From the IMG/VR virus record IMGVR_UViG_2563366924_000007: a stretch of 16,518 bases of DNA; one strand, given 5' to 3'. Both the position numbers and the translations under genes were made by a program. Under the pieces are notes generated by a model. It ran no database searches. It worked only from the letters and a program-made list of their open reading frames with translations, and was not told the origin of the DNA. Shown here piece by piece: positions 195-16,518 of the stretch; positions within the stretch are counted from its first letter, which is position 1; each line of letters opens with the position of its first letter. This DNA comes from a virus (Duplodnaviria; Heunggongvirae; Uroviricota; Caudoviricetes).

Positions 195-1856
195 TCAAAT
201 CCCGGTAAATTCGGCAAGTCGCTGCTTATGGCTATCGCTCATATCGAAAGCAAAATCCTCATGCTCAGCCTGGAAGGTGCCGAACGCCATCAGCGCAGAT
301 ACCGCAGGATCTATCTTGTTAGAGGATTTCTTTTTGTTGGGCTTAATGTTGGCGTTAGCGTCGGACTCCATCACCACGTTACCAATCGCCCAGGCCAGAA
401 CCGGATCGCCCCGATGGCGCACCACCTTGCGGTTTACGAACACCTCAAAGGATTTCGCTACCGGACTGAATTTAAGATAGGTTTGCGGGAACGGCTCCAC
501 ATCGAGGCCCGCCCCCTGCAGCTGGGTGCGTAGATGCGTGGCGTTCCACGTATCAAAACCCACCAGCCGAATGTTGAATGTTTCGGCATCACGCAAAATA
601 TCGTCACGGATGCGGTCATAGTCGATACAGTCACCGGGTGTGGTGCGTATCCAGCCCGCTTTCACCCACTGGCGGTAGATGGCGCGGTTTTTGTTGGCGA
701 CGTTAAGCAACTGTGCTTCCGGCAGATAATGACGGGTCAGGAGCCTGATCTCCCTGTCGAACGGGAAAGCGTAGCTCACGCTGGTGATATCGCTGGTAGA
801 GGACAGGTCAAACCCGGCGTAGCACTCCCTTCCGGCCAGATCTTCTTCGGTATAGTCGAGTGCACAGGCATCCCATGCACCGGCACCCATCCACGGCGTG
901 GAGCCCTGACACCAGATATTGAAACGTTTGGTCAGCATTTCCACCCACTGCGACGGTATGCCCCGTGCTTTCTGGATGGTGGATTCCAGTTTCGCCGCGT
1001 CAACGGATACATGCAGGTTAGGGTTGGCCTTGATCCACATTTCCGGCTGTTCAACCTCGCTTTCGTCGTCCAGCTCGTAGATCAGGACAAACAGCGAATC
1101 GTTGCTCTCTTCCCCGGCCAGAATCTGGCAGCAGTAGTCGTAATGCTGTTTGCAGGCGGAGACAACATTACTCCCGGCGGTGGTAATGGCGAACAGAACC
1201 GCCTCAGGACGTGCGCCCATGCCCAGCTCAAGCGCGGAATAAACGCCGTTATCCGGGTGAAGATGGTACTCATCGACAATCGCCAGGCTGGGGTTAGTGC
1301 CCTCAATGGTAGCCGCCTTCGCCGCCAGTGGCTTTAACAGGCTGTTGCTCTTCGGAAAAATGACCTTGTGCGCCTGAATATTGACGCGCTTTTTCAGCGG
1401 TTTTGACAGCAGACACATCTGGCGGGCATCGTCGAACACGATTCGGGCCTGATCCCGGCTCACCGCCGCCGTGTAGATATCCTGCTGGCCCTTCTCCATC
1501 ACCAGAAACCAGTTAGCCAGCATGGCGGCCACAGTGGATTTGGCATTCTTGCGCGGCACCTCAATAAACGCGCTGCTGTACTTCCGGCGGCCTGACTCCC
1601 TGACTTTAAAGCCCAGCAGGTTAGCAAAGGCGAACTGCTGCCACGGCTCCAGCTCGATTGGCTGGCCGCGCAGCGGGCCTTTGACGTGTGGACAGAGCCG
1701 GGAAAAGGCAATAAACCGCTCTACGGTCGCCGTATCGAACTCATAACGGGGGTCATTCAGGTCTGAAAAGTACCTCTCCACGGCCTGTTTTACACGCTTA
1801 CAGGCCGGAATTTCGCCCGTTTTTATCGCGTTTGCGTACTCATTCCAGACGGTCAA
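195..1856 (-). CDS. terL: Phage terminase large subunit
   Basis: 553 aa; P-loop-like segment IEVPRKNAKST, Walker B-like LAIVDEYHL, size and position after terS. Only in-frame start that includes the P-loop is TTG at 1856, preceded by a GAGGAAG Shine-Dalgarno-like sequence. Confidence 0.88.
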   Translation of the reverse strand: MTVWNEYANAIKTGEIPACKRVKQAVERYFSDLNDPRYEFDTATVERFIAFSRLCPHVKGPLRGQPIELEPWQQFAFANLLGFKVRESGRRKYSSAFIEVPRKNAKSTVAAMLANWFLVMEKGQQDIYTAAVSRDQARIVFDDARQMCLLSKPLKKRVNIQAHKVIFPKSNSLLKPLAAKAATIEGTNPSLAIVDEYHLHPDNGVYSALELGMGARPEAVLFAITTAGSNVVSACKQHYDYCCQILAGEESNDSLFVLIYELDDESEVEQPEMWIKANPNLHVSVDAAKLESTIQKARGIPSQWVEMLTKRFNIWCQGSTPWMGAGAWDACALDYTEEDLAGRECYAGFDLSSTSDITSVSYAFPFDREIRLLTRHYLPEAQLLNVANKNRAIYRQWVKAGWIRTTPGDCIDYDRIRDDILRDAETFNIRLVGFDTWNATHLRTQLQGAGLDVEPFPQTYLKFSPVAKSFEVFVNRKVVRHRGDPVLAWAIGNVVMESDANANIKPNKKKSSNKIDPAVSALMAFGTFQAEHEDFAFDMSDSHKQRLAEFTGI

Positions 1857-2196
1857 GCTCGTCTTCCTCTTCCGTTTCTACCGGATTCCGGCGGCGGCTC
1901 ACCGGATCAAAGCCCAGCAGCGACGACATTTTAATCATGATTTTTTCAGCATCGGCCTTTGCACTCAGTGCCGGATTTCGGCTCTCGCCACCCTGGCTGT
2001 TAACAATGCTGAACCCACGGCTGGCAAGGTCTTCCACGGCTTTGCGGTACATCGAATAGTTGACGCAAAAAAGCTCAAGGTTGTTCCAGTCGGCGGGTGT
2101 CAGATCGCCACGCTCGGCCAGTTGCTTCGCTTTCGCTTTCCACTGCTGCGCGGCTAACTCATCAAGGTAAGCTGGCGGTTTTGGTGGTCTTGCCAT
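1840..2196 (-). CDS. terS: Terminase small subunit (P27-like)
   Basis: Translation from ATG at 2196 (MARPPKPPAYLDELAAQQWKAKAKQLAERGDLTP...) resembles P27-family small terminases; the longer track ORF to 2364 is an alternative-start extension. Stop overlaps the terL start. Confidence 0.8.
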   Translation of the reverse strand: MARPPKPPAYLDELAAQQWKAKAKQLAERGDLTPADWNNLELFCVNYSMYRKAVEDLASRGFSIVNSQGGESRNPALSAKADAEKIMIKMSSLLGFDPVSRRRNPVETEEEDELDRLE

Positions 2197-2249
2197 AAAA
2201 ATTTCTCGTTTCCATCGCGTTTTATTTTCAAAAAAATCACCGTGCGTAA

Positions 2250-2320
2250 AAATTTGAGGGGGCGGGCGGTGCCTGGCACCTTGAGGTTTGTCCTGAAAAC
2301 CTCCCCCACCCCGTCCATGC
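2250..2320. other. Candidate cos/packaging site in the HNH-terS intergenic region
   Basis: Perfect 13-bp palindrome GGTGCCTGGCACC (2268-2280) flanked by a G-tract (GAGGGGGCGGGCGG) and a C-tract (CCTCCCCCACCCCGTCC), in a roughly 275-bp non-coding gap just upstream of terS. Confidence 0.3.
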
Positions 2321-2471
2321 GGCCTGTCAGCGGTTGCGGAAGCATTCCCGCAACTCCCGTTCACGCTCGCTCATACGCTGCACAGGCTGGCGCTCATTGC
2401 GTCTGCTTCGCCCCTGCATGAAGCCATCACGGCAGCGCATCAATGATCGGTACAGATTCACCACGTCTTTC

Positions 2472-2915
2472 TCATTCATTTCTGCCCTCATACATCCAGT
2501 CATTGCGATGGGCTGCACGCTCTTCCTGCTCACGGTACAGCCCTGCTTTGCGCTTCGCTTTGGTGGTTGGGTCTTGCTGTGTGGTCTTCTGGTTATGATG
2601 CGCCTGGCATAACGGCTGGTGATTCCACTCAGGCCAGAACAGAACGTCATCACCGCCGTTGATAGGGATGATGTGATCGACAATCTTTGCAGGAACGTAG
2701 AGGCCCAGCTTCTGACACTCAACGCACAGCGGATAGCGCTTAAGGTACTGAGCGCGGTACTTCTCCCATGAGGCTGAATAACCACGGGCGCGACGGTGGC
2801 CGCGTCTGGCATCCTCTGCCCGCCACGCTTCCCGCTTATGCTCGTCACACTTGCCAGACTTCACCCGTTTATTGCATCCCGGCTCTGTGCACCGGCGTAG
2901 TGGTTGCCACGGCAT
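2472..2915 (-). CDS. HNH endonuclease (packaging-associated)
   Basis: Cys/His-rich HNH-type motifs (CVECQKLG, HIIPINGGDD, NHQPLCQAHHNQK); ATG at 2915 overlaps the upstream stop; sits immediately before terS. Confidence 0.85.
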   Translation of the reverse strand: MPWQPLRRCTEPGCNKRVKSGKCDEHKREAWRAEDARRGHRRARGYSASWEKYRAQYLKRYPLCVECQKLGLYVPAKIVDHIIPINGGDDVLFWPEWNHQPLCQAHHNQKTTQQDPTTKAKRKAGLYREQEERAAHRNDWMYEGRNE

Positions 2916-3208
2916 CAGTACACCCCCACATCTCGGTAGACAGACCACAACGCAGAGACAGCCATCGGTATCTCTTTGGCGTCGGTGTCACCAATCATCG
3001 TGCGGTACTCGTACAGCTGAGAGACGTACATCAAACAGCCGATCTTGATAGCCGGGGTGAACTCCAGACCGTTATCAAATCGCTTGCCGATATGCTTCTG
3101 GCAGACCTCCAGCGCAGCTTCGATGTACGCCTGTATCAACGTATCTTCGTAATCATCATCAATACGGCAATGCAGCTTTGCTTCTTCCAGACCGATTAAC
3201 TCACTCAT
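2915..3208 (-). CDS. gp6-like head-tail connector / DNA-packaging protein
   Basis: Translation from ATG at 3208 (MSELIGLEEAKLHCRIDDDYEDTLIQAYIEAALEVCQKHIG...) matches the gp6-like connector pattern; GGAGG Shine-Dalgarno upstream; the track ORF to 3460 is an extension. Confidence 0.75.
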   Translation of the reverse strand: MSELIGLEEAKLHCRIDDDYEDTLIQAYIEAALEVCQKHIGKRFDNGLEFTPAIKIGCLMYVSQLYEYRTMIGDTDAKEIPMAVSALWSVYRDVGVY

Positions 3209-3539
3209 TGAAAATGCCTCCCTTGCACAGCAGCTCAAGCCGGGTGTGATCCACATCAGGAATGACGGCCACGATGCCGTAAACCTGCCCCCGGACGTTT
3301 GGCGAGCGGTACAGAATGCGGTTTGCGGTGGTGATATCGTCGCGGTAGCGCGTCCAGATTCGCACAGTGGCTTCGGAGTAAAGCGCCCCGGAAGACATGC
3401 GCTCACGCCCGCTGATAGCACGAATTTCAGCCCAGACTGAGGCAAGGTCAGCCCATTCATAGATAACCTGACCAGTCGGGTCGCGGTGAGATTCCGACTT
3501 CTGAAAGGTAACGCGGCGTTTCATCTTTCCGGCTCTCAT
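3201..3539 (-). CDS. Head-tail adaptor / head closure protein
   Basis: 112 aa with the pattern typical of this family (VWAEIRAISGRE...IWTRYR...LELLCKG); ATGA overlap with the portal stop. Confidence 0.75.
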   Translation of the reverse strand: MRAGKMKRRVTFQKSESHRDPTGQVIYEWADLASVWAEIRAISGRERMSSGALYSEATVRIWTRYRDDITTANRILYRSPNVRGQVYGIVAVIPDVDHTRLELLCKGGIFNE

Positions 3540-4771
3540 ACGTCACCGTCCTTGCTGTCTTTACTGATCTTCACTTCCTGCTTCCATGCCTGACTGAACT
3601 CGTCACCACCTTCACGCGGCGGCATACCCTCACGCTCACGGGCTTCGTTCGGGTTCATAATCCCGTTCTTGATACCGCGCTCATAAGTGGCGTAACGCTC
3701 GGTAGGTGTGGCACGGAGAAGGTCAGCGGAGTCAAACTCCACCAGATAGCGGGTTCCCGGAACGGGAGAGGCCACCAGCAGCGCGGATTTAATTTGTTGC
3801 TCGAAGTTCGCCAGCCACGGACGCATCGTCATGGTGAGAAATGCGCGGCTCGCCTCACTAAAATTGCTGTAGGTGCTGTTGCTGTATTCCTGCAAGAAGA
3901 TGGGAGAAACGTTAAACATGCGGGCAATGTCTTCAATGGAGAAGCGCCGGGAGGCCAGCCACTCAGCATCCTGATTGCTCATGCCAAGTTGCTTATAGTC
4001 CATGCCACCTTCAAGGATCGGCGTTTTCCCGGCATTTCTGGCACCTTTGTAACGTTCCAGCGCATCCATTGCCTGTTTGCCCTTCACGCTGTCGAGCCAT
4101 TCTTTAGTTACCACTACCCCCGAAGCCATCATCCCATCTTTCATAATGCTGGCACCGTGGCGCTGTTGTGCCAGACCTAACCCCAGCGCCTCACGGCAGA
4201 TGGTGATCGGCGAACGCCCCAGAAAACCATCATCGGTGGAGTAACGCAGGTGCAGAATCTCTTCCTGCAGGTAGGTGCGCACTGCCCCGGTAAACGGTTC
4301 AGTAACGGTGTATTTGTACTTATGCTGGCCGATACGCTCAGGAACAACCGCCCCCGGCGCATACGGATGCAGGGATTGCGGCTGGCCGTCACGGCCCCAC
4401 TGGATCACCGCATAGGCGTTACCATTCAGCAGGCAATGACGCATCATCGTGCGCTTGAACTGGTAAGGCGTCTGACAGTCGTTCGGTTGCTCGTTAAGGA
4501 GAAAATCCACCGGGTGATTGCTTAGCCACTCCCGCGCTTCTCGGCCGTTATCGTTGCGCACGCGGTAGAGGTAGCAGGGCATTGTTGCCACTGCCTCGCT
4601 GATAACTGATATGGCGTTCATGACCGCCGGCAGAGATTCCGCAGTACCGGCAGACACATATTCGCCTGATCCGGTATTTGGAATCCCTGCCATCGCCAGA
4701 AACTCATCAATCGTCATGCTGCGCTGTTCGGATGGCTCAGATTTACGGCCAAAAGGCCAGATATTCCACAT
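3536..4771 (-). CDS. Phage portal protein (HK97-type)
   Basis: 411 aa; position between protease and adaptor; sequence character of HK97-family portals. Confidence 0.88.
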   Translation of the reverse strand: MWNIWPFGRKSEPSEQRSMTIDEFLAMAGIPNTGSGEYVSAGTAESLPAVMNAISVISEAVATMPCYLYRVRNDNGREAREWLSNHPVDFLLNEQPNDCQTPYQFKRTMMRHCLLNGNAYAVIQWGRDGQPQSLHPYAPGAVVPERIGQHKYKYTVTEPFTGAVRTYLQEEILHLRYSTDDGFLGRSPITICREALGLGLAQQRHGASIMKDGMMASGVVVTKEWLDSVKGKQAMDALERYKGARNAGKTPILEGGMDYKQLGMSNQDAEWLASRRFSIEDIARMFNVSPIFLQEYSNSTYSNFSEASRAFLTMTMRPWLANFEQQIKSALLVASPVPGTRYLVEFDSADLLRATPTERYATYERGIKNGIMNPNEAREREGMPPREGGDEFSQAWKQEVKISKDSKDGDV

Positions 4772-4772
4772 A

Positions 4773-5333
4773 TCACAGCCCCGCTAAGTCAGCCCAGCGT
4801 CGGCGGTTATCACCAGCACGGCGCAGTTCAGGATGTTGGGAGAACAGAGAACGGTGCGCAATTTCCACGCCGGACTCAGGGTAAGCAGGCATAGAAGTAA
4901 CGGTGATCTCCCGCAGCTCGGCAGCGGTAACAGTGCGAATATACGGTGTAGGAGTAATATCCCAGGACTCTTTCAGCGCACGGAATCCGAAGCTCATGCC
5001 GGAAATGTCTCCACGCTCCACCAGCTCCAGCACATCATTGCCAAGTTGGGTGTTTGGCGGGGTCAGCTCGAAACGCAGCCCGGTATCATCTTCGGACAAC
5101 ACCAGCGTGCCGGATTTGGTACGCCCCAGCAGTTGGGTATAGTTATGCTCGTACAGTGCACGCACATCGCTACCGGATGCCAGGCTGTCTTTAAACGCCC
5201 CCGGCGCAAACTGCTCGCGGAACTCATCCCAGATCACCTCTGACAGGCTGTTCCAGCGCACGGCATAGCCCACCAGCTTTTTGTTGCTGGCGCTCAGTTC
5301 GGAGGTACGGATTTCAAAATCGATTGTTTTCAT
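4773..5333 (-). CDS. Prohead maturation protease (HK97-type)
   Basis: 186 aa; resembles HK97-family prohead proteases; GGAG Shine-Dalgarno before the ATG at 5333. Confidence 0.85.
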   Translation of the reverse strand: MKTIDFEIRTSELSASNKKLVGYAVRWNSLSEVIWDEFREQFAPGAFKDSLASGSDVRALYEHNYTQLLGRTKSGTLVLSEDDTGLRFELTPPNTQLGNDVLELVERGDISGMSFGFRALKESWDITPTPYIRTVTAAELREITVTSMPAYPESGVEIAHRSLFSQHPELRRAGDNRRRWADLAGL

Positions 5334-5351
5334 TGTTGGACTCCACAGAGG

Positions 5352-5378
5352 GCAAAAAGGGGCCGAAGCCCCTTAAAC
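5352..5378 (-). terminator. Intrinsic terminator-like hairpin between capsid and protease genes
   Basis: On the minus strand GGGGC-uucg-GCCCC followed by UUUUUG. Confidence 0.5.
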
Positions 5379-5384
5379 GTCAGA

Positions 5385-6551
5385 TCAGGAACCGGAACCG
5401 GAAAGCTCAAGCACCTTGATGGCGTTGGAGTCCACCACACCACCGCCTAGGTATTTATCGGTGTGCACCTTGTAGAAACCAGGTTCGGTGATGTTGTCGG
5501 GGCGGGTACGCACGCCAGTGGTGTGATCCACGATGAAGTAACCGCGCTTAAAGTCGCCGACTGCCAGGAACGCTTCACCCGCAGCCGCATCAGGCATGGT
5601 TTCCAGATATTGAACCGGACGGCCAAGGAGGGTATCGGGAGAGTCAGCGACGAGACGATCACGCCAGATGTAATCCCCGTTGCCGTTTTTCAGCTTTTGC
5701 AGCGTAGCGGCAGTGTTGGAGTTCATCACCCATACGGCATTTTTACGGTATTTGGCTTTCAGCTTATACAGCAGGTCGATCAATCCATCAGAGGAAACGG
5801 CAGCAGCTTCCATTTTCTCCAGCGTTCCGAACGGACGGGTTTTATCGCTGGTGGCCGCACGCGGATAGGACAGGAACCCTTTGGATTTTTTATCACCGTC
5901 GCCGTTCACAAAGTCGGTTTCTTCGGTAGCAGTGAAGGTGTCGGTGATTTCGGAAGACAGCCAACCCAGAATATCAACTTCGGAGAAGTCGAGAATTTCC
6001 TGAGTGGTTTTCGGGTAGGCGTAGATCGGGTTGAGTTTGATATCAACGCGCTCCATCTTAGGTGTGCTGGTTTCGGTACGCGCTTCGCCTTCGGTGCCGC
6101 GCTTAACGGTAGTGCCACCCACTGATACCAGCTTCTGGTATTCGTTGGTTTTGGTGGTCTTCACCGTAGCGATGGAGCGCATAACGCTGTCATCCTGCAA
6201 CTGGCGCATGATCTCTTTGTCCAGCTCAGGGATAACGGTATAGCCGCCGTCAGCCTGCACCAACGTGGAGAGAGAGCGGGTATCGCCGGTCATGATGTAG
6301 TGGCGCAGCTCATCGTTGCTTACACCTTTACCTTCAACAGAAGTACCAGGCAGATTGCGCTGATCGTCGGCGACGGCCTCAAGGCGGGTAATTTCAACTT
6401 CAAGCGCATCAGCCTGGGCGCGGAGTTCATCGAACTGCTTGCCCTCTTCATCGTTCAGGCTTCGCTTTTCGCTGTCAGCTTTTTCCAGCATGGAACGCAT
6501 CTGGGTTTTGAGTGCGGCTTTCTGCTGGCGTAATTCAAGTAATTTCTTCAT
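5385..6551 (-). CDS. Major capsid protein (HK97-fold) with N-terminal coiled-coil delta domain
   Basis: From ATG at 6551 (MKKLLELRQQKAALKTQMRSMLEKADSEKR...) a charged coiled-coil N-terminus then an HK97-like capsid body; the track ORF to 6668 adds an implausible N-terminal extension. Confidence 0.88.
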   Translation of the reverse strand: MKKLLELRQQKAALKTQMRSMLEKADSEKRSLNDEEGKQFDELRAQADALEVEITRLEAVADDQRNLPGTSVEGKGVSNDELRHYIMTGDTRSLSTLVQADGGYTVIPELDKEIMRQLQDDSVMRSIATVKTTKTNEYQKLVSVGGTTVKRGTEGEARTETSTPKMERVDIKLNPIYAYPKTTQEILDFSEVDILGWLSSEITDTFTATEETDFVNGDGDKKSKGFLSYPRAATSDKTRPFGTLEKMEAAAVSSDGLIDLLYKLKAKYRKNAVWVMNSNTAATLQKLKNGNGDYIWRDRLVADSPDTLLGRPVQYLETMPDAAAGEAFLAVGDFKRGYFIVDHTTGVRTRPDNITEPGFYKVHTDKYLGGGVVDSNAIKVLELSGSGS

Positions 6552-6575
6552 GGAGTGGTTTCCGTAACAATTAAC

Positions 6576-6672
6576 GTTGAGACGTGAAACCAGCGCTTGG
6601 AGGGATGTCCACCTGGAAAGGAAACCGTCGCAGAACGGGAAAGAACCAGGTGGACAGTGGCGGCTCACGTCT
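6576..6672. promoter_or_regulatory. Nested inverted repeats in the capsid-operon leader/promoter region
   Basis: Perfect 11-bp inverted repeat TGTCCACCTGG (6606-6616) / CCAGGTGGACA (6646-6656) inside an outer 8-bp inverted repeat AGACGTGA (6580-6587) / TCACGTCT (6665-6672). Confidence 0.35.
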
Positions 6673-6813: not shown

Positions 6814-7326
6814 ATGGACTTCGATTTTGATGATATGGCATACCCGGATATTTTTTTAATTTCCGGCGAGGAGTTTAAAGGAAGCCGGAACACAGGAAAA
6901 AATCAGGTAGATATCCCGTTTACTGACGAACCGCAAATTGAATTGGGTGATATTCTGATTCAGAAGATTGGAAGCCGCGAGTTAAGCCTTAAAGTTGTCG
7001 ATCTTTCAATATCAAAGAATGGAACGCTGAACGTAGGTACAACGCATCCTCACTTACTTACGTTATCCGTAGAGAATCTTTCTTCCGACGCACACAGGAC
7101 AGCAAAGAGCATGAATACTTTTAATATTGGCTCCGTCAGTGGTGAGCAAGTTCAAATAGGTGAAAGTAATCATATGCTGGTGAATATCAGTATTACTGAA
7201 CTTGTCGAGAAAGTAGCCAAATCTGGCGATCCACAGGCTAAATCAATGTTGAAACAGTTACTGGAAAATAGCACCGTTGCCAGTATCGTTGGCGCTGGCG
7301 CTTCCGCGCTGTTAGGTCTGCTTTAA
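6814..7326 (+). CDS. Hypothetical protein, AT-rich, with C-terminal hydrophobic Gly/Ala-rich tail (170 aa)
   Basis: Clean ORF with a GGGGGA Shine-Dalgarno-like sequence before the ATG; opposite orientation to neighbours; C-terminus VASIVGAGASALLGLL looks like a membrane anchor. No recognised domain. Confidence 0.6.
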   Translation: MDFDFDDMAYPDIFLISGEEFKGSRNTGKNQVDIPFTDEPQIELGDILIQKIGSRELSLKVVDLSISKNGTLNVGTTHPHLLTLSVENLSSDAHRTAKSMNTFNIGSVSGEQVQIGESNHMLVNISITELVEKVAKSGDPQAKSMLKQLLENSTVASIVGAGASALLGLL

Positions 7327-7372: not shown

Positions 7373-7708
7373 TTATTCTTTATCCAGCCCCCACTGATAG
7401 AAAGCCCAGCTTGCCGTTGATTGTGCGCTATGGATAGCGTTCTCAAGGCCAGAGGTTGGGTACGACAAATCAGCCGCCATCCTCTGTAGAAGATCGAGGT
7501 AAGCGCTGGCGTCTTTCGACAACTCTTGCCCCCCTTCTTCCAGCCCAGACTGGTACGATTCCAGATCAAGTTTTTCAGAAGTGACAAAAGCGCTCAGAGC
7601 CAGAAAATCCGTCACCGTAATCTCATCTTTATTTGAAAGCTCATCAACGGCGCTGTAGAGAAACTTAACATCGCTCATATGCCCGTTATCTTTGCCAATC
7701 AGTTTCAT
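7373..7708 (-). CDS. Hypothetical small acidic protein (111 aa)
   Basis: ATG at 7708 preceded by AAGAGG at good spacing; acidic composition; sits just downstream of the iteron origin. No recognised domain. Confidence 0.6.
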   Translation of the reverse strand: MKLIGKDNGHMSDVKFLYSAVDELSNKDEITVTDFLALSAFVTSEKLDLESYQSGLEEGGQELSKDASAYLDLLQRMAADLSYPTSGLENAIHSAQSTASWAFYQWGLDKE

Positions 7709-8050: not shown

Positions 8051-10186
8051 TTATTCTTCTCCATCTTCCGCAACCTGGTGAAGCACATAAACGTTAATTT
8101 GACGCCCATCAATACGCGGGGATTTCTGCTGGTATCCACGCCCGCTGGACGGCTCAGAAAGCAAGCCAGCAGCGGCAAGCACGCGGGCAAACTGCCTGGC
8201 GTTAAAGCCCTGAGCTATCTCCTTCTCAAACGTTGCGGGGAACGTATAGAACACCAGCGGCGCATCATCATGGCTGCTTTTGCGCTTTCGATACCCGGCC
8301 AAATCGCGAATTGGCATACTGGACGGATCATAGGGCAACGGTGCAAAGCGGCTTAAACCGTAGGCATTCAGGAACGCCTCGCACTGCTCGATGATCTGCT
8401 GGTGCTCTTTGTTACCCGTGCCGAACTCTTTCACCCAGGCGTTAAAGCTATGCTGGATAGCGTCACGGCTGGCCTGTTCACTCCATCCGGTGATTGATGC
8501 ACCAGTTACCAGCGCGGCTTCGAGGATTGCAAAACGTTCAGCCACGCGGTGTACCTGCTCACCGTAGTCAGCCGGGATGAGGCCGCGCCAGCGCGTTTGC
8601 GCGTCACGCACCGCCTGTTTAGCCTCCTGCTGGTTAGCCGCCAGCCATTTAACCCACTCACGCCCCGCCGCCCCGTGGTTATCAATCCAGGCTTCTTTCA
8701 GTGCGTCAGCATGAGCCTTGCCGTTTGGCAGACCGTTAAAAGCCGTCGATTTCTCCATAGGGATGTTGAGCAAGCGCACCAGTTGGCCCGCTTTCACTTT
8801 CAGCCCACCAGCAGCCAGGAAGGTTTCAATATCCATTTCCCCGGTGCTGATCGCCACAGTGCGCCAGCGTTTAAGCTCCCGATTGCCGCCCTCTTTGGCT
8901 CCCTGCAACTTTCCGGCACCGTTAAACAGGGTGTAGGCAGACGTAGCAACATCTTTGGCACTGCTGCCCTGTCCTACCTCATCAAGCGGTAACAGGCTGT
9001 CGTTATGCGCCTCCGCTTCGTTTGCTATGCCAAGCGCAGTACCGTACCAGGTAAGCCGCAACGCATCAGGCTCACCCCACAGGCTGCTCGCAATATTGGC
9101 GGTAGTGGTCTTACCGGCGCTCGACTGCTCGAACAAATGGACGCCGAAACCATCAGCCCCCACCAGGCCAATAAGCGGCGCGGATAATGCCGCTGCCACG
9201 CCCAGCATCATGGACGGATTGCCCCCGGCCAGACGGGCGACGGAATCCCGCCAGGTGGCAGCAGTACCAGCAATGGCATACCCGGAAGATGCAGCGCTGC
9301 GACCGTTAAAGAGAATGGGCGTCTCTGGATCACCAATCACTTCACCATCAGGCATGATATATGCGCCGTGATGCCAGCCAGTGGTATGGGTGATAATCCA
9401 TTCCCGATCAGTGCCGCTTTGCTGCAACCAGTCGGCCAGAATCGCCCGGAATGTGCTTTTAGTGGTCACATTCACCCCACCAGCTTTAAGTGAGCGCCAG
9501 CCGTCGCGCTCACCGATATCAGCACAGGGGATCGCCCTGGTAATATCTTCATGGCCACGCGGCGAACGCCAGCGCAAAACAAGATAGCGCTCTGCCCCGT
9601 CACTACCGGAGCCGACCACCTCAAGAGGCGAGCACAGCCACGTTTCGTTATTGATGATCTCGCCACTATCCTTGTCCACCTTTGGCGTGATCCAGTACAG
9701 GCCATCGCTCCGGCTCTCCACGCGGGGTTTGAGTTCATCGCCCGGTTCAGGCTTTGGCTCCCGTTTTTTTACAGGCAGGTTCACCACAATGCTTTCCCCG
9801 CGTTCGGCCTCTTCTTTGAGACGTGGAAGCCTGCCCGTCCAGTCCTCCTTCGGCTGAGGCTCAAACATGCCATTAAACAGCCTGGCCTCTTTCACATCCG
9901 CCAGCGCCAGTTTGGTTGCGATAGTGCTTATCTGCATTTCGGAAAGTTCGCCAGCGCGGATCACACGAACACTGCGACGGCCGTTATCAACAATGTTTAA
10001 CCGTTCCAGTTCCGCAAGTTGCCTTTTACCCAGATAAACAGGCGGTACATCATCCCATGCCCTTTTACCTTCGCTCTCGATCCAGTGCTGCACATGCGAA
10101 TAGGCATCTTCACCCGCAAAGATAATCGCCTCGGTAAATTTATCTTTCGGCAGGAATTTAATGTTCGGGGCATTCTTCATCTTCAT
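8051..10186 (-). CDS. Replication initiator/helicase-like P-loop NTPase (satellite Rep type)
   Basis: 711 aa; Walker A-like SSAGKTTT and Walker B-like LLPLDEVG; adjacent to iterons; start translationally coupled to the upstream small ORF. Confidence 0.7.
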   Translation of the reverse strand: MKMKNAPNIKFLPKDKFTEAIIFAGEDAYSHVQHWIESEGKRAWDDVPPVYLGKRQLAELERLNIVDNGRRSVRVIRAGELSEMQISTIATKLALADVKEARLFNGMFEPQPKEDWTGRLPRLKEEAERGESIVVNLPVKKREPKPEPGDELKPRVESRSDGLYWITPKVDKDSGEIINNETWLCSPLEVVGSGSDGAERYLVLRWRSPRGHEDITRAIPCADIGERDGWRSLKAGGVNVTTKSTFRAILADWLQQSGTDREWIITHTTGWHHGAYIMPDGEVIGDPETPILFNGRSAASSGYAIAGTAATWRDSVARLAGGNPSMMLGVAAALSAPLIGLVGADGFGVHLFEQSSAGKTTTANIASSLWGEPDALRLTWYGTALGIANEAEAHNDSLLPLDEVGQGSSAKDVATSAYTLFNGAGKLQGAKEGGNRELKRWRTVAISTGEMDIETFLAAGGLKVKAGQLVRLLNIPMEKSTAFNGLPNGKAHADALKEAWIDNHGAAGREWVKWLAANQQEAKQAVRDAQTRWRGLIPADYGEQVHRVAERFAILEAALVTGASITGWSEQASRDAIQHSFNAWVKEFGTGNKEHQQIIEQCEAFLNAYGLSRFAPLPYDPSSMPIRDLAGYRKRKSSHDDAPLVFYTFPATFEKEIAQGFNARQFARVLAAAGLLSEPSSGRGYQQKSPRIDGRQINVYVLHQVAEDGEE

Positions 10187-11221: not shown

Positions 11222-11402
11222 GGGTCACCTCACTTGCCGCTTTTAGTTCACGAACGCGGGACAACGACATGCTGATCAGATCCATCGCAACGCTGTACTC
11301 GGTTTCATCATCAAAATTCATATACAGCGATGTTGAGAGCAACGCTTCCAGGCGGCGCAGTTCATCTTCAATGTCAATTTCCGACCATTTGACCTTACGC
11401 AT
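11214..11402 (-). CDS. Hypothetical small acidic protein (62 aa)
   Basis: ATG at 11402; overlaps the stop of the upstream ORF. Confidence 0.4.
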   Translation of the reverse strand: MRKVKWSEIDIEDELRRLEALLSTSLYMNFDDETEYSVAMDLISMSLSRVRELKAASEVTHA

Positions 11403-11607
11403 GGCGCACCTCCATACTCTGAAATGCGTGGAACGGCAGGCGGGCAGCGAAAACGAGGGTTACGCCGGGCATGGTGTCTCGGGCTTCCTGCTCACTGGAT
11501 GCGTTGACGTAGATTACCAACGGCTTTGCGGTTGGGTATCGCTCAGAGGTGAAGAGAAATCTCCATGTAAATTCCGGGCGAGTTTGGGTAGACTGATTGT
11601 CAGCCAT
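11395..11607 (-). CDS. Hypothetical protein (70 aa), first gene of the replication operon
   Basis: Internal ATG at 11607 (MADNQSTQTRPEFTW...) preceded by GAGGT; the longer track ORF to 12099 runs antisense through the RHH gene and is rejected. Confidence 0.4.
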   Translation of the reverse strand: MADNQSTQTRPEFTWRFLFTSERYPTAKPLVIYVNASSEQEARDTMPGVTLVFAARLPFHAFQSMEVRHA

Positions 11608-11637
11608 AACTGTTACCTCACTTAACGGTTTGGTGAG

Positions 11638-11679
11638 ACGCCTCGGTACTGCTCGAACAGTCCGGGGCGTTGTTTTTTT
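11638..11679 (+). terminator. Strong hairpin plus T-tract in the divergent regulatory region
   Basis: ACGCCTCGG ... CCGGGGCGT stem with an inner ACTG/CAGT stem, followed by TGTTTTTTT on the plus strand. Confidence 0.4.
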
Positions 11680-11700
11680 AGATAGCACCGTGTTAAGGTG

Positions 11701-11737
11701 TGTACCTATTAAAGAAAACATTACGCCAATAGGTACG
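11701..11737. promoter_or_regulatory. Candidate operator: 9-bp perfect inverted repeat just upstream of the RHH gene
   Basis: GTACCTATT (11702-11710) and AATAGGTAC (11729-11737) separated by 18 bp, ending 4 bp before the ATG at 11741. Confidence 0.35.
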
Positions 11738-11740
11738 CAC

Positions 11741-11935
11741 ATGTCAACACCCATTAAACGAGATCGGCAACCAAAAGGAGCCGGGAAAGCACCAGCGTTC
11801 CAGATTCGAATCCCCCCCGAACTTAAAGAGCAATTTGAAAAAGAAGCCCAAGCAGAGAGTGTTAGCCTCGCAAATTGGATGAAGGAATTAGGCCGGGAAG
11901 CCCTCCGAAAGAAAGGTATTGAGCCAAAAGGCTGA
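11741..11935 (+). CDS. Arc/CopG-like ribbon-helix-helix DNA-binding protein (64 aa), candidate repressor
   Basis: MSTPIKRDRQPKGAGKAPAFQIRIPPELKEQFEKEAQAESVSLANWMKELGREAL has a beta-strand plus two-helix RHH pattern; divergent from the replication operon. Confidence 0.5.
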   Translation: MSTPIKRDRQPKGAGKAPAFQIRIPPELKEQFEKEAQAESVSLANWMKELGREALRKKGIEPKG

Positions 11936-12032
11936 ATAAAATCAGCGGGCGCAGAATTGCGCTGGCTCATTCTTTGACCACCAGCATTAACCCTGGTATG
12001 CTTAATCTGTTTCGGTTTTTCGTAGTGACATT

Positions 12033-12060
12033 GGCAGCTCTGCAAAGCTGCCTTTGTTTT
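12033..12060 (+). terminator. Intrinsic terminator after the RHH gene
   Basis: GGCAGCT-ctgcaa-AGCTGCC followed by TTTGTTTT; abuts the ant stop codon on the other strand. Confidence 0.55.
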
Positions 12061-12838
12061 ATTCAGCGTCAGCATTCGGCACCTCCGGCAATACACCACC
12101 AGCGATCAGTCTTTTCGTTAACCACTGCTCACCTTTCCCTGTCAGCATCGTTGTGAATGAGGCTCTTACCTCGCCATTCGTTTCATACGTTCCCTGGCGA
12201 ACGGCAAAATAACCGCTATCGATATAACGCTGCATAGGCAGGTTGTGGCGCTGGCCGCCATTGATGAGAATCCCCTGTTGCCTCATCCAGCCGAATAATT
12301 TGATGGGGCCAAGCCCTACGGCTTTGGCATAGTTTGGAATGGAAATCCCCTTACTGATCTCTGCCACGCGATCAGCAAAATCAACTTTTGGCGCAGCGGC
12401 CACCAGCCGGTTTTCAAGTTCGCTTGCCTTTTCGGCAAGATCAGCGGCAAGGCGCAGGGCTTCCGGTAACGTCTGGGGGATATTAGCGGCGGCTTTTGCC
12501 TGGCGTTCGCAGTTGATGAAGTAGCGGCGTACCTCCCGCCCTTTTTCGTTGCGCTCAACCATTGCCAGCTCTTTACCCATATCAATAGTGATCAGGTAGT
12601 CATGTTCCATCTGCTGCCGAGATTTTGCGCTCGCCCGTTTTGGCGTGCTCAAACTTTCAACAATGATGTAATCGACTCCAGTAGTGAAGCCGTACTGGCT
12701 AATACGCCCTTTAATCCAGTTGGTGAAATCACGCCCAACGCCGAGAAACGCATGGAGTTTTTTTGCACTGACCAGCGATACCGTCACGCCGCCAATATTT
12801 CCGGGGTTAACCGGAACCAGCTCATTTAATTTTTGCAT
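12059..12838 (-). CDS. Phage antirepressor (AntA N-terminal plus KilAC C-terminal domain)
   Basis: N-terminal HDYLITIDMGKELAMVERNEKGREVRRYFINCE and a C-terminal KilAC-like region. Confidence 0.8.
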   Translation of the reverse strand: MQKLNELVPVNPGNIGGVTVSLVSAKKLHAFLGVGRDFTNWIKGRISQYGFTTGVDYIIVESLSTPKRASAKSRQQMEHDYLITIDMGKELAMVERNEKGREVRRYFINCERQAKAAANIPQTLPEALRLAADLAEKASELENRLVAAAPKVDFADRVAEISKGISIPNYAKAVGLGPIKLFGWMRQQGILINGGQRHNLPMQRYIDSGYFAVRQGTYETNGEVRASFTTMLTGKGEQWLTKRLIAGGVLPEVPNADAE

Positions 12839-12846
12839 AGCGCCCC

Positions 12847-13131
12847 CTACGCAGGTTTACGGTTGTAAGGGGTATTGACGTTCTCAACAGCAGGTGGATT
12901 GCGAACCCACCAAAGAACATCTGACAGAAGCCATGCGCAACTATTACGGCCAAAGTGGCAGCGTGGCGGGAATTTACCTTCGTTCTCCATATACCAGCGG
13001 GTGGAACGGGAAAGGCTGGTTATTTCGAAGCATTCACTTTCACGAATACGGCGATCAAACTTAATGCCATATTCTGCGAGAATGGTGCGGCGTTGTTCAG
13101 GTGTTGGCGGGGTAAAAAGAGTATTTGACAT
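12847..13131 (-). CDS. alpA: AlpA-family transcriptional regulator / excisionase-like protein
   Basis: HTH segment ITSLSRSTRWYMENEGKFPPRCHFGRNSCAWLLSDVLWWV; strong GGAGG Shine-Dalgarno before the ATG at 13131. Confidence 0.7.
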   Translation of the reverse strand: MSNTLFTPPTPEQRRTILAEYGIKFDRRIRESECFEITSLSRSTRWYMENEGKFPPRCHFGRNSCAWLLSDVLWWVRNPPAVENVNTPYNRKPA

Positions 13132-14042: not shown

Positions 14043-14133
14043 ATCGTCACCCTCAACGCCCCTAATAACTTGCGAGCCAGGCGGGTAGGGTTTCCCGCTT
14101 TTCGGTTGGCCGACCTAGACCCGCAATATCAGT

Positions 14134-15360
14134 TTAATCTCTATTCGCTACAGGTAACAGAACAACATTTTGATGATTACCCGCAAGAAGTTCTAAGCGG
14201 TCATACCACTTGTTCAGCGCGTCCAGCTTCTCCGGCAAGTACAGACTACGGTTATAAATCGCCATAACTCCCGGCATTGAATGGCCCAGCAACTGTTCAA
14301 CAACGTGCGGAGCGATACCCATATTATTCATATGCGTTGCAAGCGTTCGCCGTAGATCATGCAATGTCCAAGGTTCAGAATGCCCCAGTTTTTTATAAAC
14401 ACTACGGCCCCACTGGCTAACCGCTTCGCTATTCTTCACAACCCCAAGAAGGTAGCCGGATGATTTTGTTTCATCGTGGAGCATTTCAATAAATGAACGC
14501 ATCGCCTCCGGAACTGGACGCACAATCTTTTCACCGCCTTTACTATGCGCTTTTGGTACTGTCCACATCCACGCCTCCATATCCCATTCGGCCCACTCTG
14601 ACAATCTGGCCTCCTGGGTGCGGCAACCAAACAAAGTAGTGATCCTGAGCAAGTTTGTGTAGTAAGGCAGAAAAACATCGCCGGACGATATAGCAGCCCA
14701 CAATCCCCCAACCTCTTTATCTTTCAGTACACGATCTTTTTTCGCCTGCTTTTTACCAACATCGGGAATACTCAAATCTTCAAGGGCGGTACTGACGGCG
14801 TAACGGCGAACGCGGCAGAATTTCAGAGCCTGCTTACACATCTGGAATACATAACCAGCAGCAACCGGCGTTTTCTTTTTCATCCTGTCAAAGCAGTCAA
14901 GCCAGTAACGGGTTTCGCAGTCAGCGAGCGCCATTTTCCCAATATAAGGGTAAATGTGTTTGCGCAGCTCCGCTTTATGCCGCTCAACGTTCGCACGGTT
15001 TTCTTCCGCATATTCGCGTATCCAGTATTCGATAGCTTCCTGCACCGTGACCGGTTTAAGCGTTTCCTGAGTAGTTAGCGCCAACTGGTGCTTTGGGTCT
15101 TTACCAGAGGCCAGCCACTGACGACATTTATCACGCGAGGAACGGGCCTCTTTGAGACTCATATCAGGGTAGCGCCCCAGAGTCAGCCGATGCAGCTTCT
15201 GCCCGTCGAGTCGGTAAGTAAACACCCAGCTAATGCCACCAGCTTTCGTTACCTTAGCGCTCAACCCGGCACCATCAGCATAAAACTCAATCTTACTGGC
15301 CGGGATGCCATGTAATCCCTTTAACTTCCTGTCGCTCAGTTTGTTAAGTTCGCCAGCCAT
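14134..15360 (-). CDS. int: Tyrosine site-specific integrase (P4-like)
   Basis: 408 aa with catalytic-domain pattern (R in FGCRTQEARL, HDLRRTLATH, LLGHS, Y in AIYNRSLY) and an N-terminal arm-binding-like region. Confidence 0.9.
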   Translation of the reverse strand: MAGELNKLSDRKLKGLHGIPASKIEFYADGAGLSAKVTKAGGISWVFTYRLDGQKLHRLTLGRYPDMSLKEARSSRDKCRQWLASGKDPKHQLALTTQETLKPVTVQEAIEYWIREYAEENRANVERHKAELRKHIYPYIGKMALADCETRYWLDCFDRMKKKTPVAAGYVFQMCKQALKFCRVRRYAVSTALEDLSIPDVGKKQAKKDRVLKDKEVGGLWAAISSGDVFLPYYTNLLRITTLFGCRTQEARLSEWAEWDMEAWMWTVPKAHSKGGEKIVRPVPEAMRSFIEMLHDETKSSGYLLGVVKNSEAVSQWGRSVYKKLGHSEPWTLHDLRRTLATHMNNMGIAPHVVEQLLGHSMPGVMAIYNRSLYLPEKLDALNKWYDRLELLAGNHQNVVLLPVANRD

Positions 15361-15608: not shown

Positions 15609-15633
15609 TATAGGTGTCACAAAGGGAGTGACC

Positions 15634-16518
15634 ATGAGAACAGGATGTGAACCGACCCGGTTTGGTAATGAAGCTAAGACCATTATTCACGGTGATGCCC
15701 TTGCCGAACTTAAAAAGCTACCTACTGAAAGCGTCGATCTGATCTTTGCCGACCCACCGTATAACATCGGTAAAAATTTTGATGGTCTGATCGAAGCCTG
15801 GAAAGAAGATCTATTTATCGACTGGCTGTTTGAAGTGATTGCAGAGTGCCACCGCGTTCTGAAAAAGCAGGGCAGCATGTACATTATGAACAGTACGGAA
15901 AACATGCCCTTTATCGATCTCCAGTGCCGCAAGCTTTTTACCATCAAAAGTCGCATCGTCTGGTCATATGACAGTTCTGGAGTACAGGCGAAAAAACACT
16001 ACGGCTCCATGTACGAACCCATCCTGATGATGGTGAAAGACGCAAAGAACTACACATTCAACGGTGATGCTATTCTGGTAGAAGCCAAAACCGGATCGCA
16101 GCGCGCGTTGATCGATTATCGCAAAAATCCTCCACAGCCATACAATCATCAAAAAGTACCGGGTAACGTCTGGGATTTTCCGCGAGTGCGTTATTTAATG
16201 GATGAATATGAGAACCACCCGAAGCAAAAACCGGAAGCCTTACTGAAACGCATTATTCTCGCCTCTTCCAACCCAGGCGATATCGTTCTCGACCCGTTTG
16301 CCGGTAGCTTTACTACCGGTGCCGTAGCCATCGCCAGCGGACGAAAATTCATTGGTATTGAGATCAACAGCGAGTACATCAAAATGGGGCTTCGACGGCT
16401 GGATGTCGCGTCGCATTACTCCGCGGAAGAACTGGCGAAAGTGAAAAAAAGAAAGACGGGCAACCGGTCAAAACGATGCCGGGTTAGCGAAGTTGACCCC
16501 GATCTCATTGCAAAGTAA
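15634..16518 (+). CDS. yhdJ: DNA adenine methyltransferase YhdJ
   Basis: Translation from ATG at 15634 matches my memory of enterobacterial YhdJ (MRTGCEPTRFGNEAKTIIHGDALAELKK...), with the DPPY catalytic motif and FAGSFTTG AdoMet motif; AGGGAG Shine-Dalgarno upstream; the track ORF starts 6 nt earlier at GTG. Confidence 0.85.
   Translation: MRTGCEPTRFGNEAKTIIHGDALAELKKLPTESVDLIFADPPYNIGKNFDGLIEAWKEDLFIDWLFEVIAECHRVLKKQGSMYIMNSTENMPFIDLQCRKLFTIKSRIVWSYDSSGVQAKKHYGSMYEPILMMVKDAKNYTFNGDAILVEAKTGSQRALIDYRKNPPQPYNHQKVPGNVWDFPRVRYLMDEYENHPKQKPEALLKRIILASSNPGDIVLDPFAGSFTTGAVAIASGRKFIGIEINSEYIKMGLRRLDVASHYSAEELAKVKKRKTGNRSKRCRVSEVDPDLIAK

Follow-up and report, generated by a model that had tools for sequence, protein, structure and literature searches.

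What is controlled from the 133 bp (positions 11608–11740) that separate a ribbon-helix-helix (RHH) gene from the first gene of a replication operon in the IMG/VR virus record IMGVR_UViG_2563366924_000007? This record, a 16,518-nucleotide stretch of DNA assigned to the Caudoviricetes and called the window below, had been described in an earlier note as holding, between the two genes, a divergent control region with a terminator-like hairpin and an operator-like inverted repeat. Comparison with related loci leads us to a reading that we consider moderately probable, in which the 133-bp region would be the immunity and control centre of a capsid-forming satellite of the phage-inducible chromosomal island (PICI) type, would hold its cell-division-inhibitor and replication genes silent, and would follow the logic of the c4-icd region of phage P1 and of the PLE-cI-kil/eta region of P4 with different parts. 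What the data support directly is a conserved structure together with the strand to which it belongs, a co-variation between an operator and the β-strand of the RHH protein, and a conserved open frame.

About 140 related loci were compared in all, every one of them selected by motif or by its icd gene: 26 loci from different Enterobacterales genera that were reached through the Icd protein, several Escherichia coli loci, and more than 120 IMG/VR contigs that were reached through a pattern lying outside the hairpin. Across these loci a module of ~115 nt is conserved while the flanks on both sides change, and it runs from an A/T tract through the hairpin and the Shine-Dalgarno sequence to the ATG and approximately codon 15 of icd. 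This antisense-RNA/icd-leader module is present in 370 of 5426 complete E. coli genomes at 75–85% identity, as well as in many genera and in more than 120 IMG/VR contigs. The control layout is not peculiar to the window element and is widespread in Enterobacterales satellites.

An antisense RNA predicted opposite the icd start

The first gene of the replication operon encodes 70 amino acids (aa) on the minus strand (11395–11607), with its ATG at 11607 and a Shine-Dalgarno sequence GAGG at 11619–11616. The earlier note had placed this gene correctly but had left it anonymous, whereas its product scores 60.8 bits against the NCBIfam model NF033153 (phage_ICD_like; cut-off 25), matches P1 Icd at 35.5% identity (tblastn) and resembles P4 Kil in the pattern MA..T..PEF......P......E..AR.....L..AARLP. 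These matches place the gene in one family with P1 icd and P4 kil, and since such a homologue comes first in the operon, the region would correspond to P1 immI and to the P4 immunity region.

The homology to P1 includes the icd ribosome-binding region, where AAACCGTTAAGTGAGG of the window aligns with AAACCTGTTAGTGAGG of P1; within the latter, GTTAGTGA is the annotated C4 target b2, which overlaps GTGAGG. In P1 and P4 themselves, the C4 and CI RNAs (68.8 and 74.9 bits, respectively, with Rfam) lie directly upstream of icd/kil on the same strand. Neither C4, isrK nor another RNA family was found at the region in the window, at Rfam gathering thresholds over the whole window or at E ≤ 10 over 11300–12150, where matches were at chance level, and C4/CI were likewise without an Rfam match in three relatives (L002–L004). 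The hairpin was rejected as a C4/CI homologue because no Rfam match was obtained even at E ≤ 10, and the region does not show the architecture of that family (RF01695, clan CL00128), in which 87 positions form a long outer stem around two hairpins on the same strand. The alignments indicate that the icd target is conserved while the regulator differs between P1 and the window.

On the opposite strand, the G+C-rich stem with a T tract that the earlier note had described is present at 11637–11679 and exceeds chance. This hairpin, stem-loop 2 (SL2), spans 11637–11671 on the plus strand and is followed by UUG and U7 to 11679 (T7 at 11673–11679), in the manner of an intrinsic terminator. It consists of 14 G+C-rich pairs, including one U·G, with one bulged U47 and the loop CUCGAA; its RNAfold energy is −22.1 kcal/mol, and none of 300 shuffles of the region contained a 35-nt window that folded as well. 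A simple consensus scanner for terminators and promoters, which excludes bulged stems and hexamers with fewer than 4/6 matches, reported neither SL2 nor the promoters proposed below; SL2 was missed because of the bulge and stem rules, and comparative data were relied on instead.

These data show both covariation and a marked asymmetry between the strands. Among 30 sequences, five pairs of SL2 carry changes on both sides, and 97.9% of the cells are paired, compared with ~40% when partners are slid. The non-Watson-Crick cells on the plus strand are G·U in 50 cases and A·C in none, and in 113 sequences the corresponding counts are 173 and 3, where an A·C on the plus strand is how a wobble pair of the icd-sense strand would appear. 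When sequences were folded singly, SL2 was stabler on the plus strand in 29/30 and 94/99 loci. The restriction to G·U on the plus strand therefore indicates that SL2 works as RNA on the strand bearing the U tract. Neither a palindrome acting at the DNA level nor a leader element of the sense strand would produce this pattern.

Upstream of SL2 on the same strand lies a second hairpin, SL1 (11603–11634), and the plus strand from 11601 to 11680 folds as two clean hairpins at −32.8 kcal/mol (z = −4.07). The 7-nt loop of SL1, CCUCACU (11616–11622), is the exact complement of the icd Shine-Dalgarno region, and SL1 is stabler on the plus strand in 30/30 and 97/99 loci. A loop complementary to the icd ribosome-binding region is a C4-like trait; such complementarity supports a regulator that may work like C4, as distinct from membership of the C4 family.

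Together, the two hairpins would make up a cis-antisense RNA of ~79 nt (11601–11679, plus strand; ~100 nt if the start is near 11580) that covers the icd Shine-Dalgarno sequence and start codon. A candidate promoter, matched by consensus, places a −35 TGTAAA at 11566–11571 and a −10 TAGACT at 11589–11594 with a 17-nt spacer. T1, A2 and T6 of TAGACT are invariant in 30 loci while positions 3–5 vary, and the site, invariably located 10 nt ahead of CAT, scores best among the sigma-70 sites in 18/29 loci. The divergent locus L033, whose Icd has a quite different N-terminus, carries TTGATC-16-TACACT at the same distance. An alternative −10, TAAATT (11568–11573), outscores it in 7 loci; the RNA would then be ~100 nt long.

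A structure-conserved Rho-independent terminator opposite its target, as found here, is a trait of cis-encoded antisense RNAs of the P22 sar, lambda OOP and IS10 RNA-OUT type. SL2 most likely terminates a predicted ~80-nt cis-antisense RNA whose first loop would act as the anti-Shine-Dalgarno sequence of icd. The suggestion that the terminator ends an antisense transcript, which the earlier note had put forward, is thereby strengthened through comparison, namely by the covariation, the 173:3 ratio of G·U to A·C, the stability on the plus strand and a TAnnnT motif at fixed distance. Two further folds were considered. A third hairpin, SL0 (RNAalifold, 11565–11589), is not claimed, as it is invariant and has many G·U pairs with zero covariation, and a long alternative fold of 11560–11682, in which icd codons pair with the terminator, was set aside, as it competes with SL1 and SL2 and is without comparative support.

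Within icd itself, the synonymous sites of codons 2, 5–10 and 14 are fixed across 25 diverse loci, with codons 11 and 16–21 free to vary, and this fixation is therefore an independent sign of nucleotide-level function in the icd coding sequence. The same part of the gene contains GAGTTTGGGTA (11580–11590), a near-copy of which lies at 11628–11639 (direct repeat D1). In the mRNA, GAGTTTGGGTA and its near-copy appear as two C/A-rich, G-poor ACC(C)AAAC boxes that flank the icd start and could be a Rho-loading site.

The Arc-like protein, its probable operator and the eta-like frame

The gene on the other side of the region (11741–11935, plus strand), 133 bp from the icd-like coding sequence, encodes an Arc-like RHH protein of 64 aa, a putative repressor. 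Its sequence matches PHROG 228 (Arc-like) at E = 4e-8, and the Pfam scores are weak (RHH_5 23.3 bits, cut-off 26; HicB 21.1, cut-off 21; Arc 16.9). A profile built from 29 homologues matches P22 Arc in the PDB (1b28) at E = 0.0017. The AlphaFold (AF2) model, at a predicted local distance difference test (pLDDT) score of 68, shows an extended N-terminus and helices at residues 26–38 and 43–57. Its top Foldseek matches are Arc, CopA, AmrZ and CopG, with a template modelling (TM) score of up to 0.8 for Arc when normalised by target; the Foldseek E-values are weak because the protein is small. Profile and structure together show the β-α-α arrangement of the RHH family. A class A or class B RHH gene stands divergently beside icd in 101 of the 104 distinct IMG/VR loci. 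No HicA-like toxin lies beside the RHH gene, the sole neighbouring open reading frame (ORF) on the plus strand (11974–12156, 60 aa) being without a family and its stretch being taken up by a promoter-terminator module, and because the toxin is absent, the gene is not half of a HicAB toxin-antitoxin pair.

Directly in front of the RHH gene lies the 9-bp perfect inverted repeat to which the earlier note had drawn attention, ending 4 bp before the start codon (core end 11736, ATG 11741). It is the core of a 13-nt inverted repeat with 1 mismatch, a length that was reached in 0/1000 shuffles of the region. The left arm, GTGTGTACCTATT (11698–11710), overlaps the −10/+1 of the predicted RHH promoter and approximately +1 to +13 of the predicted icd transcript, and the right arm, AATAGGTACGCAC (11728–11740), lies in the spacer of the predicted icd promoter and abuts the RHH ATG. 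The window contains no other copies of the operator word.

In 66 class-A loci the inverted repeat abuts the RHH start codon, and its two arms change together and track the residues of the predicted DNA-reading β-strand. The β-strand APAFQIRI (AFQIRI) is accompanied by the arm GTGTGTACCTAT (GTACCTAT), SPMLPIRI (MLPIRI) by TGTATATGCCTAT (ATGCCTAT) and SPTFQIRI (TFQIRI) by ACGTACGTACATAA (ACGTACGTAC); NPPFQFRL (PFQFRL) occurs with ATGTAATGTGT, STKKNIRF with GGTACGTACC and TDQYQIRL with TTGTAATTACAA. In L023 and L028, each operator arm is itself a palindrome. This co-variation of operator and β-strand is good indirect evidence for a cognate protein–operator pair.

The promoters predicted at the operator are not simply divergent, a point that the earlier note had missed. 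They face each other and overlap, with starts ~5 bp apart. For the RHH gene, consensus matching predicts an extended −10 TGtTAAGGT (11691–11699) and a weak −35 TTGTTT (11670–11675), which overlaps the T tract of the terminator, with a start near 11706 on the plus strand. TGnTAnnnT is found at the same place in the seven class-A loci that were read (the window, L003, L010, L012, L019, L027 and L030). For the leftward icd/replication operon, likewise by consensus, a −35 TTGACA (11747–11742) and a −10 TAATGT (11723–11718) are separated by an 18-nt spacer, with a start near 11710 on the minus strand. This TTGACA overlaps the RHH ATG, its complement forming the RHH codons ATG-TCA-A; most of the class-A loci read contain ATGTCAA (TTGACAT on the other strand), with TAnnnT 17–18 nt away in L003, L010 and L012. 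One operator arm thus sits in the spacer of the leftward promoter and the other over both predicted start sites, a geometry from which we infer repression of the icd operon and autoregulation of the RHH gene. The proposal that the RHH protein is the repressor of the element, also made earlier, gains support from comparison through the Arc-like protein, the operator/β-strand co-variation in 66 loci and the placement of the arms on both predicted promoters.

The two genes are indeed 133 bp apart, but the region between them is intergenic only on the plus strand. On the minus strand it lies inside a frame of 226 codons (11395–12075), the ATG of which, at 12075, is preceded by a Shine-Dalgarno sequence GGAGG (12086–12082) and is located 14 nt before the stop of the upstream ant gene. 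This eta-like frame, in phase with icd, passes antisense through the entire RHH gene and then the control region before finishing as Icd; upstream of icd, the icd frame is open for 166 codons. As in P4, the Icd/Kil homologue therefore constitutes the 3′ portion of a longer frame, whose start lies where the upstream operon ends. The Shine-Dalgarno sequence and ATG of the eta-like frame are conserved in other loci too (TAAGGGG..ATG GCA CAT AAA ACA AAG).

A stop-free run covering position −150 extends over at least 150 codons in 20/29 genome loci and 85/104 IMG/VR loci, with a median of 296 codons, compared with a median of 19 and a maximum of 112 for the other two frames. The run starts where the upstream alpA or ant/Bro gene ends, and the RHH gene lies wholly inside it in 85/85 loci. 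Across the RHH gene the antisense frame is open in 89/101 loci, as against 33 expected from synonymous recoding. The extension contains no Pfam domain, and its sequence is not conserved between the RHH classes, which suggests that openness, that is, translation itself, is what is conserved, with a function that may be read by analogy from P4.

Variants of the frame were seen in several loci. In L024 (1530–3320), and also in L023 and L029, the stop-free frame passes through icd in another reading frame and is fused to the following gene, so that L024 has an ORF of 596 aa. In L009, L012, L016 and L033 the frame stops no more than ~13 nt from the icd ATG, an arrangement that points to coupling, not fusion. 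The Icd-like proteins called by annotation pipelines can be 97–184 aa long, with upstream parts that cover the control region and overlap with the RHH gene; such calls include L034 2196–2750 (E. coli O104:H4 2011C-3493) and the proteins P0001, P0003, P0006 and P0025. Either these long calls are an annotation artefact of a systematic kind, or the eta-like frame has been captured in them unwittingly.

A second promoter-plus-terminator module lies at 11974–12062 on the plus strand, antisense to the first codons of the eta-like frame, and would also serve as a terminator downstream of the RHH gene. It is composed of TTGACC, 17 nt, TGgTATGCT, ~30 variable nt and a hairpin at 12033–12052 followed by TTTGTTTTAT. 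Neither the −35 nor the length of the spacer varies among 30 distinct loci, and the stem, though variable in sequence, stays complementary. All pairs of this hairpin are Watson-Crick, so the G·U strand test gives no information. The module may encode a second small antisense RNA, or it may simply be the RHH terminator with a fortuitous promoter.

Alternative readings and the proposed mechanism

Could the plus-strand hairpin serve the RHH gene instead? With an RHH transcript started inside icd, SL2 would be an attenuator in a long mRNA leader, passed by some of the transcripts on their way into the RHH gene, and any antisense effect on icd a by-product, a possibility already raised in the earlier note. 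The hairpin does lie upstream of the RHH gene on the same strand, and class-B loci have a weak U tract with the RHH gene ~100 nt later. The class-A loci read, however, have the extended −10 TGnTAnnnT between the terminator and the RHH gene, the U7 tract of the window is canonical, and the anti-Shine-Dalgarno loop is kept, together with its fixed distance to the icd start, whichever RHH class follows. We consider attenuation unlikely to be the principal role, and it is mutually compatible with a separate antisense RNA. Less probable still is an action of the hairpin in the icd mRNA leader on the minus strand, be it as a 5′ stabiliser, an RNase site or a reduced C4/CI remnant. Such a leader element would sit in the 5′ untranslated region of the predicted leftward transcript, at the position held by C4/CI in P1 and P4, and the sense strand does fold better than shuffles (z = −3.31). 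Yet the non-Watson-Crick positions become C·A mismatches in the sense strand, which is left with 3 wobble cells against 173, its hairpin is the weaker one in 29/30 and 94/99 loci, no U tract follows in the sense direction, and no C4 or isrK match was found at E ≤ 10.

Doubts can also be raised about the protein and the frame. The RHH gene might encode a HicB-type antitoxin or an accessory protein, with the inverted repeat bound by AlpA, the integrase or a host factor. NCBI labels several homologues 'HicB family antitoxin', the Pfam HicB score is 21.1 bits at a cut-off of 21, and the NCBIfam YlcI/YnfO model scores below its cut-off. Given that a toxin partner is absent, with the neighbouring 60-aa ORF lacking a family, that the position beside icd is kept in 101/104 loci, that the operator sequence tracks the β-strand and that structure and profile searches both match the Arc repressor best, we give this explanation very little weight. 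We find it about as hard to credit that the stop-free frame is a passive shadow of plus-strand genes, with nothing but an ordinary divergent intergenic region beneath it. Real genes often have open antisense frames, and the extension, absent in 19/104 loci, has a junk-like composition and no Pfam domain. A shadow, however, would not account for a run that extends over non-coding DNA as well (in the control region and the RHH 3′ region) and opens with a conserved Shine-Dalgarno sequence and ATG at, or just past, the point where the upstream gene stops. In the other two frames the median is 19 codons and the maximum 112, synonymous recoding predicts 33 rather than 89 open frames among 101, and P4 offers a documented equivalent (PMC10111431).

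Several points weigh against the reading as an immunity centre. Transcripts, protein binding, translation and functional effects are all deduced from sequence, the shuffle and slide controls only partly remove the kinship among the sequences compared, and every promoter here is a consensus match, the −35 TGTAAA of the antisense promoter being a weak one. SL1 is near-invariant, with a single covarying pair (UA 109, AU 3), and its structure rests on strand asymmetry and not on covariation. The class-B loci L016, L017 and L021 have a poor U tract after the hairpin, and termination may be inefficient there. The long open frame is lacking in 19/104 loci, and GAGTTTGGGTA is invariant in a position that would fall in the promoter spacer, which the model leaves without explanation.

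With these reservations, the region could operate as follows. In the quiescent state, the RHH protein would occupy both operator arms, keeping the leftward icd/replication promoter shut or low and regulating its own gene. An antisense RNA of ~80 nt would be made on the plus strand from the promoter inside the first icd codons and be stopped by the hairpin and its U tract. This RNA would pair with any leaky icd leader, starting at the contact between its loop and the Shine-Dalgarno sequence, and so block icd translation; by analogy with P1 and P4, the untranslated icd transcript would be terminated ahead of the replication genes. Upon induction, a helper would activate alpA, and transcription of alpA-ant would continue leftward through the region. 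The eta-like frame would then be translated from the ATG at 12075 through the antisense RHH gene, past both operator arms and over the icd leader, and the moving ribosomes would shield the transcript from antisense pairing and termination, with the result that the Icd sequence, the replication genes and the capsid genes could be expressed.

We put forward only tentatively, and at clearly lower confidence, a generalisation of this scheme, namely that many Gram-negative PICIs, capsid-forming PICIs and related satellites possess an unrecognised three-part immunity module. In such a module, the repressor gene would be nested antisense in a frame of 150–400 codons that is selected only for translation, each nested start (eta-like and icd/kil) would be guarded by its own cis-antisense RNA (11974–12062 and ~11601–11679 in the window), and the RHH protein would be the 'missing' global repressor. 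If true, the three-part module would have a protein plus antisense RNA in place of the C4/CI RNA immunity known from P1 and P4.

The element and its place among known systems

The gene content of the window identifies it as a capsid-forming PICI-like satellite, and its dependence on a helper is predicted. By Pfam, it encodes an integrase (14134–15360), a DUF6387 protein, AlpA, an AntA+KilAC antirepressor and a DUF927 primase (8051–10186), and its capsid and packaging module (195–6668) comprises a major capsid protein, an S78 prohead protease, portal, connector, TerS and TerL. No tail genes were found by Pfam in the part of the island seen, the window ending inside the far end of the island. 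An integrase, alpA, a primase and a full capsid/packaging module without tail genes in an island of ~15 kb are the traits of capsid-forming PICIs, and all are present in this part.

The alpA gene (12847–13131; Pfam Phage_AlpA E = 2.4e-10) and the ant gene (12059–12838; ANT E = 7.8e-26, AntA E = 3.4e-24) lie on the minus strand upstream of the control region, and the alpA-ant operon they would form (12059–13131) is the presumed source of read-through transcription into it. The island adjoins yhdJ (15628–16518). In E. coli ET670, an island of the same type with a near-identical control region occupies the same chromosomal place, where the context continues as yhdU-acrS-acrE; the two contexts together therefore point to a fis/yhdJ integration site.

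Other features of the island include an int-alpA RNA (Rfam RF02996) at 14059–14125 on the minus strand, which scores 58.1 bits against a gathering score of 35.8 and lies between the integrase and DUF6387 genes. Between the capsid and primase modules, two ORFs without a Pfam family (6814–7326, plus strand, 170 aa; 7373–7708, minus strand, 111 aa) may be accessory cargo, the former being one of only two convincing plus-strand genes in the island. The icd-leader/antisense module is also found outside the satellite context. The E. coli plasmid pSTS63-2E-A (L002, 2501–2639) holds a copy that is 85% identical to the window over 11540–11678, and plasmids of 65–124 kb carry the same module beside WYL, DUF1819 and DUF1788 genes and IS3 remnants.

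In gene order (int-alpA-...-primase-capsid module, without tail genes) the window resembles EcCICFT073 and EcCIEDL933, which are Gram-negative or capsid-forming PICIs. The published work searched on PICIs and capsid-forming PICIs describes alpA as the helper-induced activator and names neither a repressor nor an antisense RNA, and work on the Gram-negative PICIs calls their global repressor unclear and makes no mention of antisense RNA. Our literature search for an antisense RNA or an RHH repressor in PICIs or P4-like elements, which also included YlcI/YnfO, returned nothing relevant; it covered subscription journals thinly and is weak evidence of absence. The control module is undescribed for Gram-negative PICIs in the literature searched. 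A sister arrangement is represented by the C4 and isrK matches noted in some Gram-negative PICIs (PMC10111431).

The region is offered as a concrete and widespread candidate for the missing control layer, comprising a putative Arc-like repressor whose operator code can be read, a predicted antisense RNA directed against the start of icd/kil and a translated bypass frame that would be fed by the helper-induced alpA operon. A frame kept open across an antisense gene, where it constrains the codon choice of the RHH gene, would also be a clean natural case of selection for translation itself, and annotation pipelines mis-call the region.

Among known systems, P22 immI comes closest to the proposed combination, in which an Arc-type repressor is joined by a terminated cis-antisense RNA that covers a ribosome-binding site. 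That region, with the Arc and Mnt repressors, ant and the sar antisense RNA, was reportedly described by Liao et al. and by Wu et al. in Genes Dev in 1987. Like the arrangement proposed for the window, it has an Arc-type RHH repressor acting on overlapping promoters and a cis-antisense RNA (~69 nt in P22) that ends at an intrinsic terminator and covers the site where ribosomes bind the mRNA of the gene under control. By structure and by profile, the window RHH protein matches P22 Arc best, at ~30% identity over 44–49 residues, a likeness confined to the RHH fold. Unlike the window, P22 has ant rather than icd as the target, and it is not known to have a nested long frame or a replication operon downstream.

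The immI region of P1 and P7 (c4 RNA-icd-ant) shares with the window a homologous Icd and icd ribosome-binding region, an ant gene within the region, and an RNA loop complementary to the icd site (CCUCACUUAAC in the window, UCACUAAC in P1 C4) that is placed to block icd translation. C4, however, arises by processing of the same transcript, and the sites at which it acts in trans are a2 and b2, whereas the window has ant upstream rather than downstream of icd, adds a putative protein repressor and yields no match to the Rfam C4 model.

In the P4 immunity region (PLE, CI RNA and nested kil/eta, with PLL-vis upstream), the Kil/Icd homologue is likewise the first translated gene of a replication (alpha-type) operon and forms the C-terminal part of a longer frame, which begins where an upstream alpA/vis-type operon ends, with a promoter inside that frame (predicted in the window). 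Translation of the long frame (eta) in P4 lets late transcription escape immunity (PMC10111431). The P4 factor is a sense-strand CI RNA with a seqA/isrK-like partner (Rfam), neither of which the window has; in contrast, the window has an RHH gene nested antisense with its own operators and a predicted cis-antisense regulatory RNA with its own promoter and terminator, and its frame upstream of icd comprises 156 codons rather than ~72. Related elements would thus have found three solutions to one regulatory task, the trans-acting C4 in P1, the CI RNA in P4 and a cis-antisense RNA with an RHH protein in the window, with the icd ribosome-binding site as the conserved target in all three.

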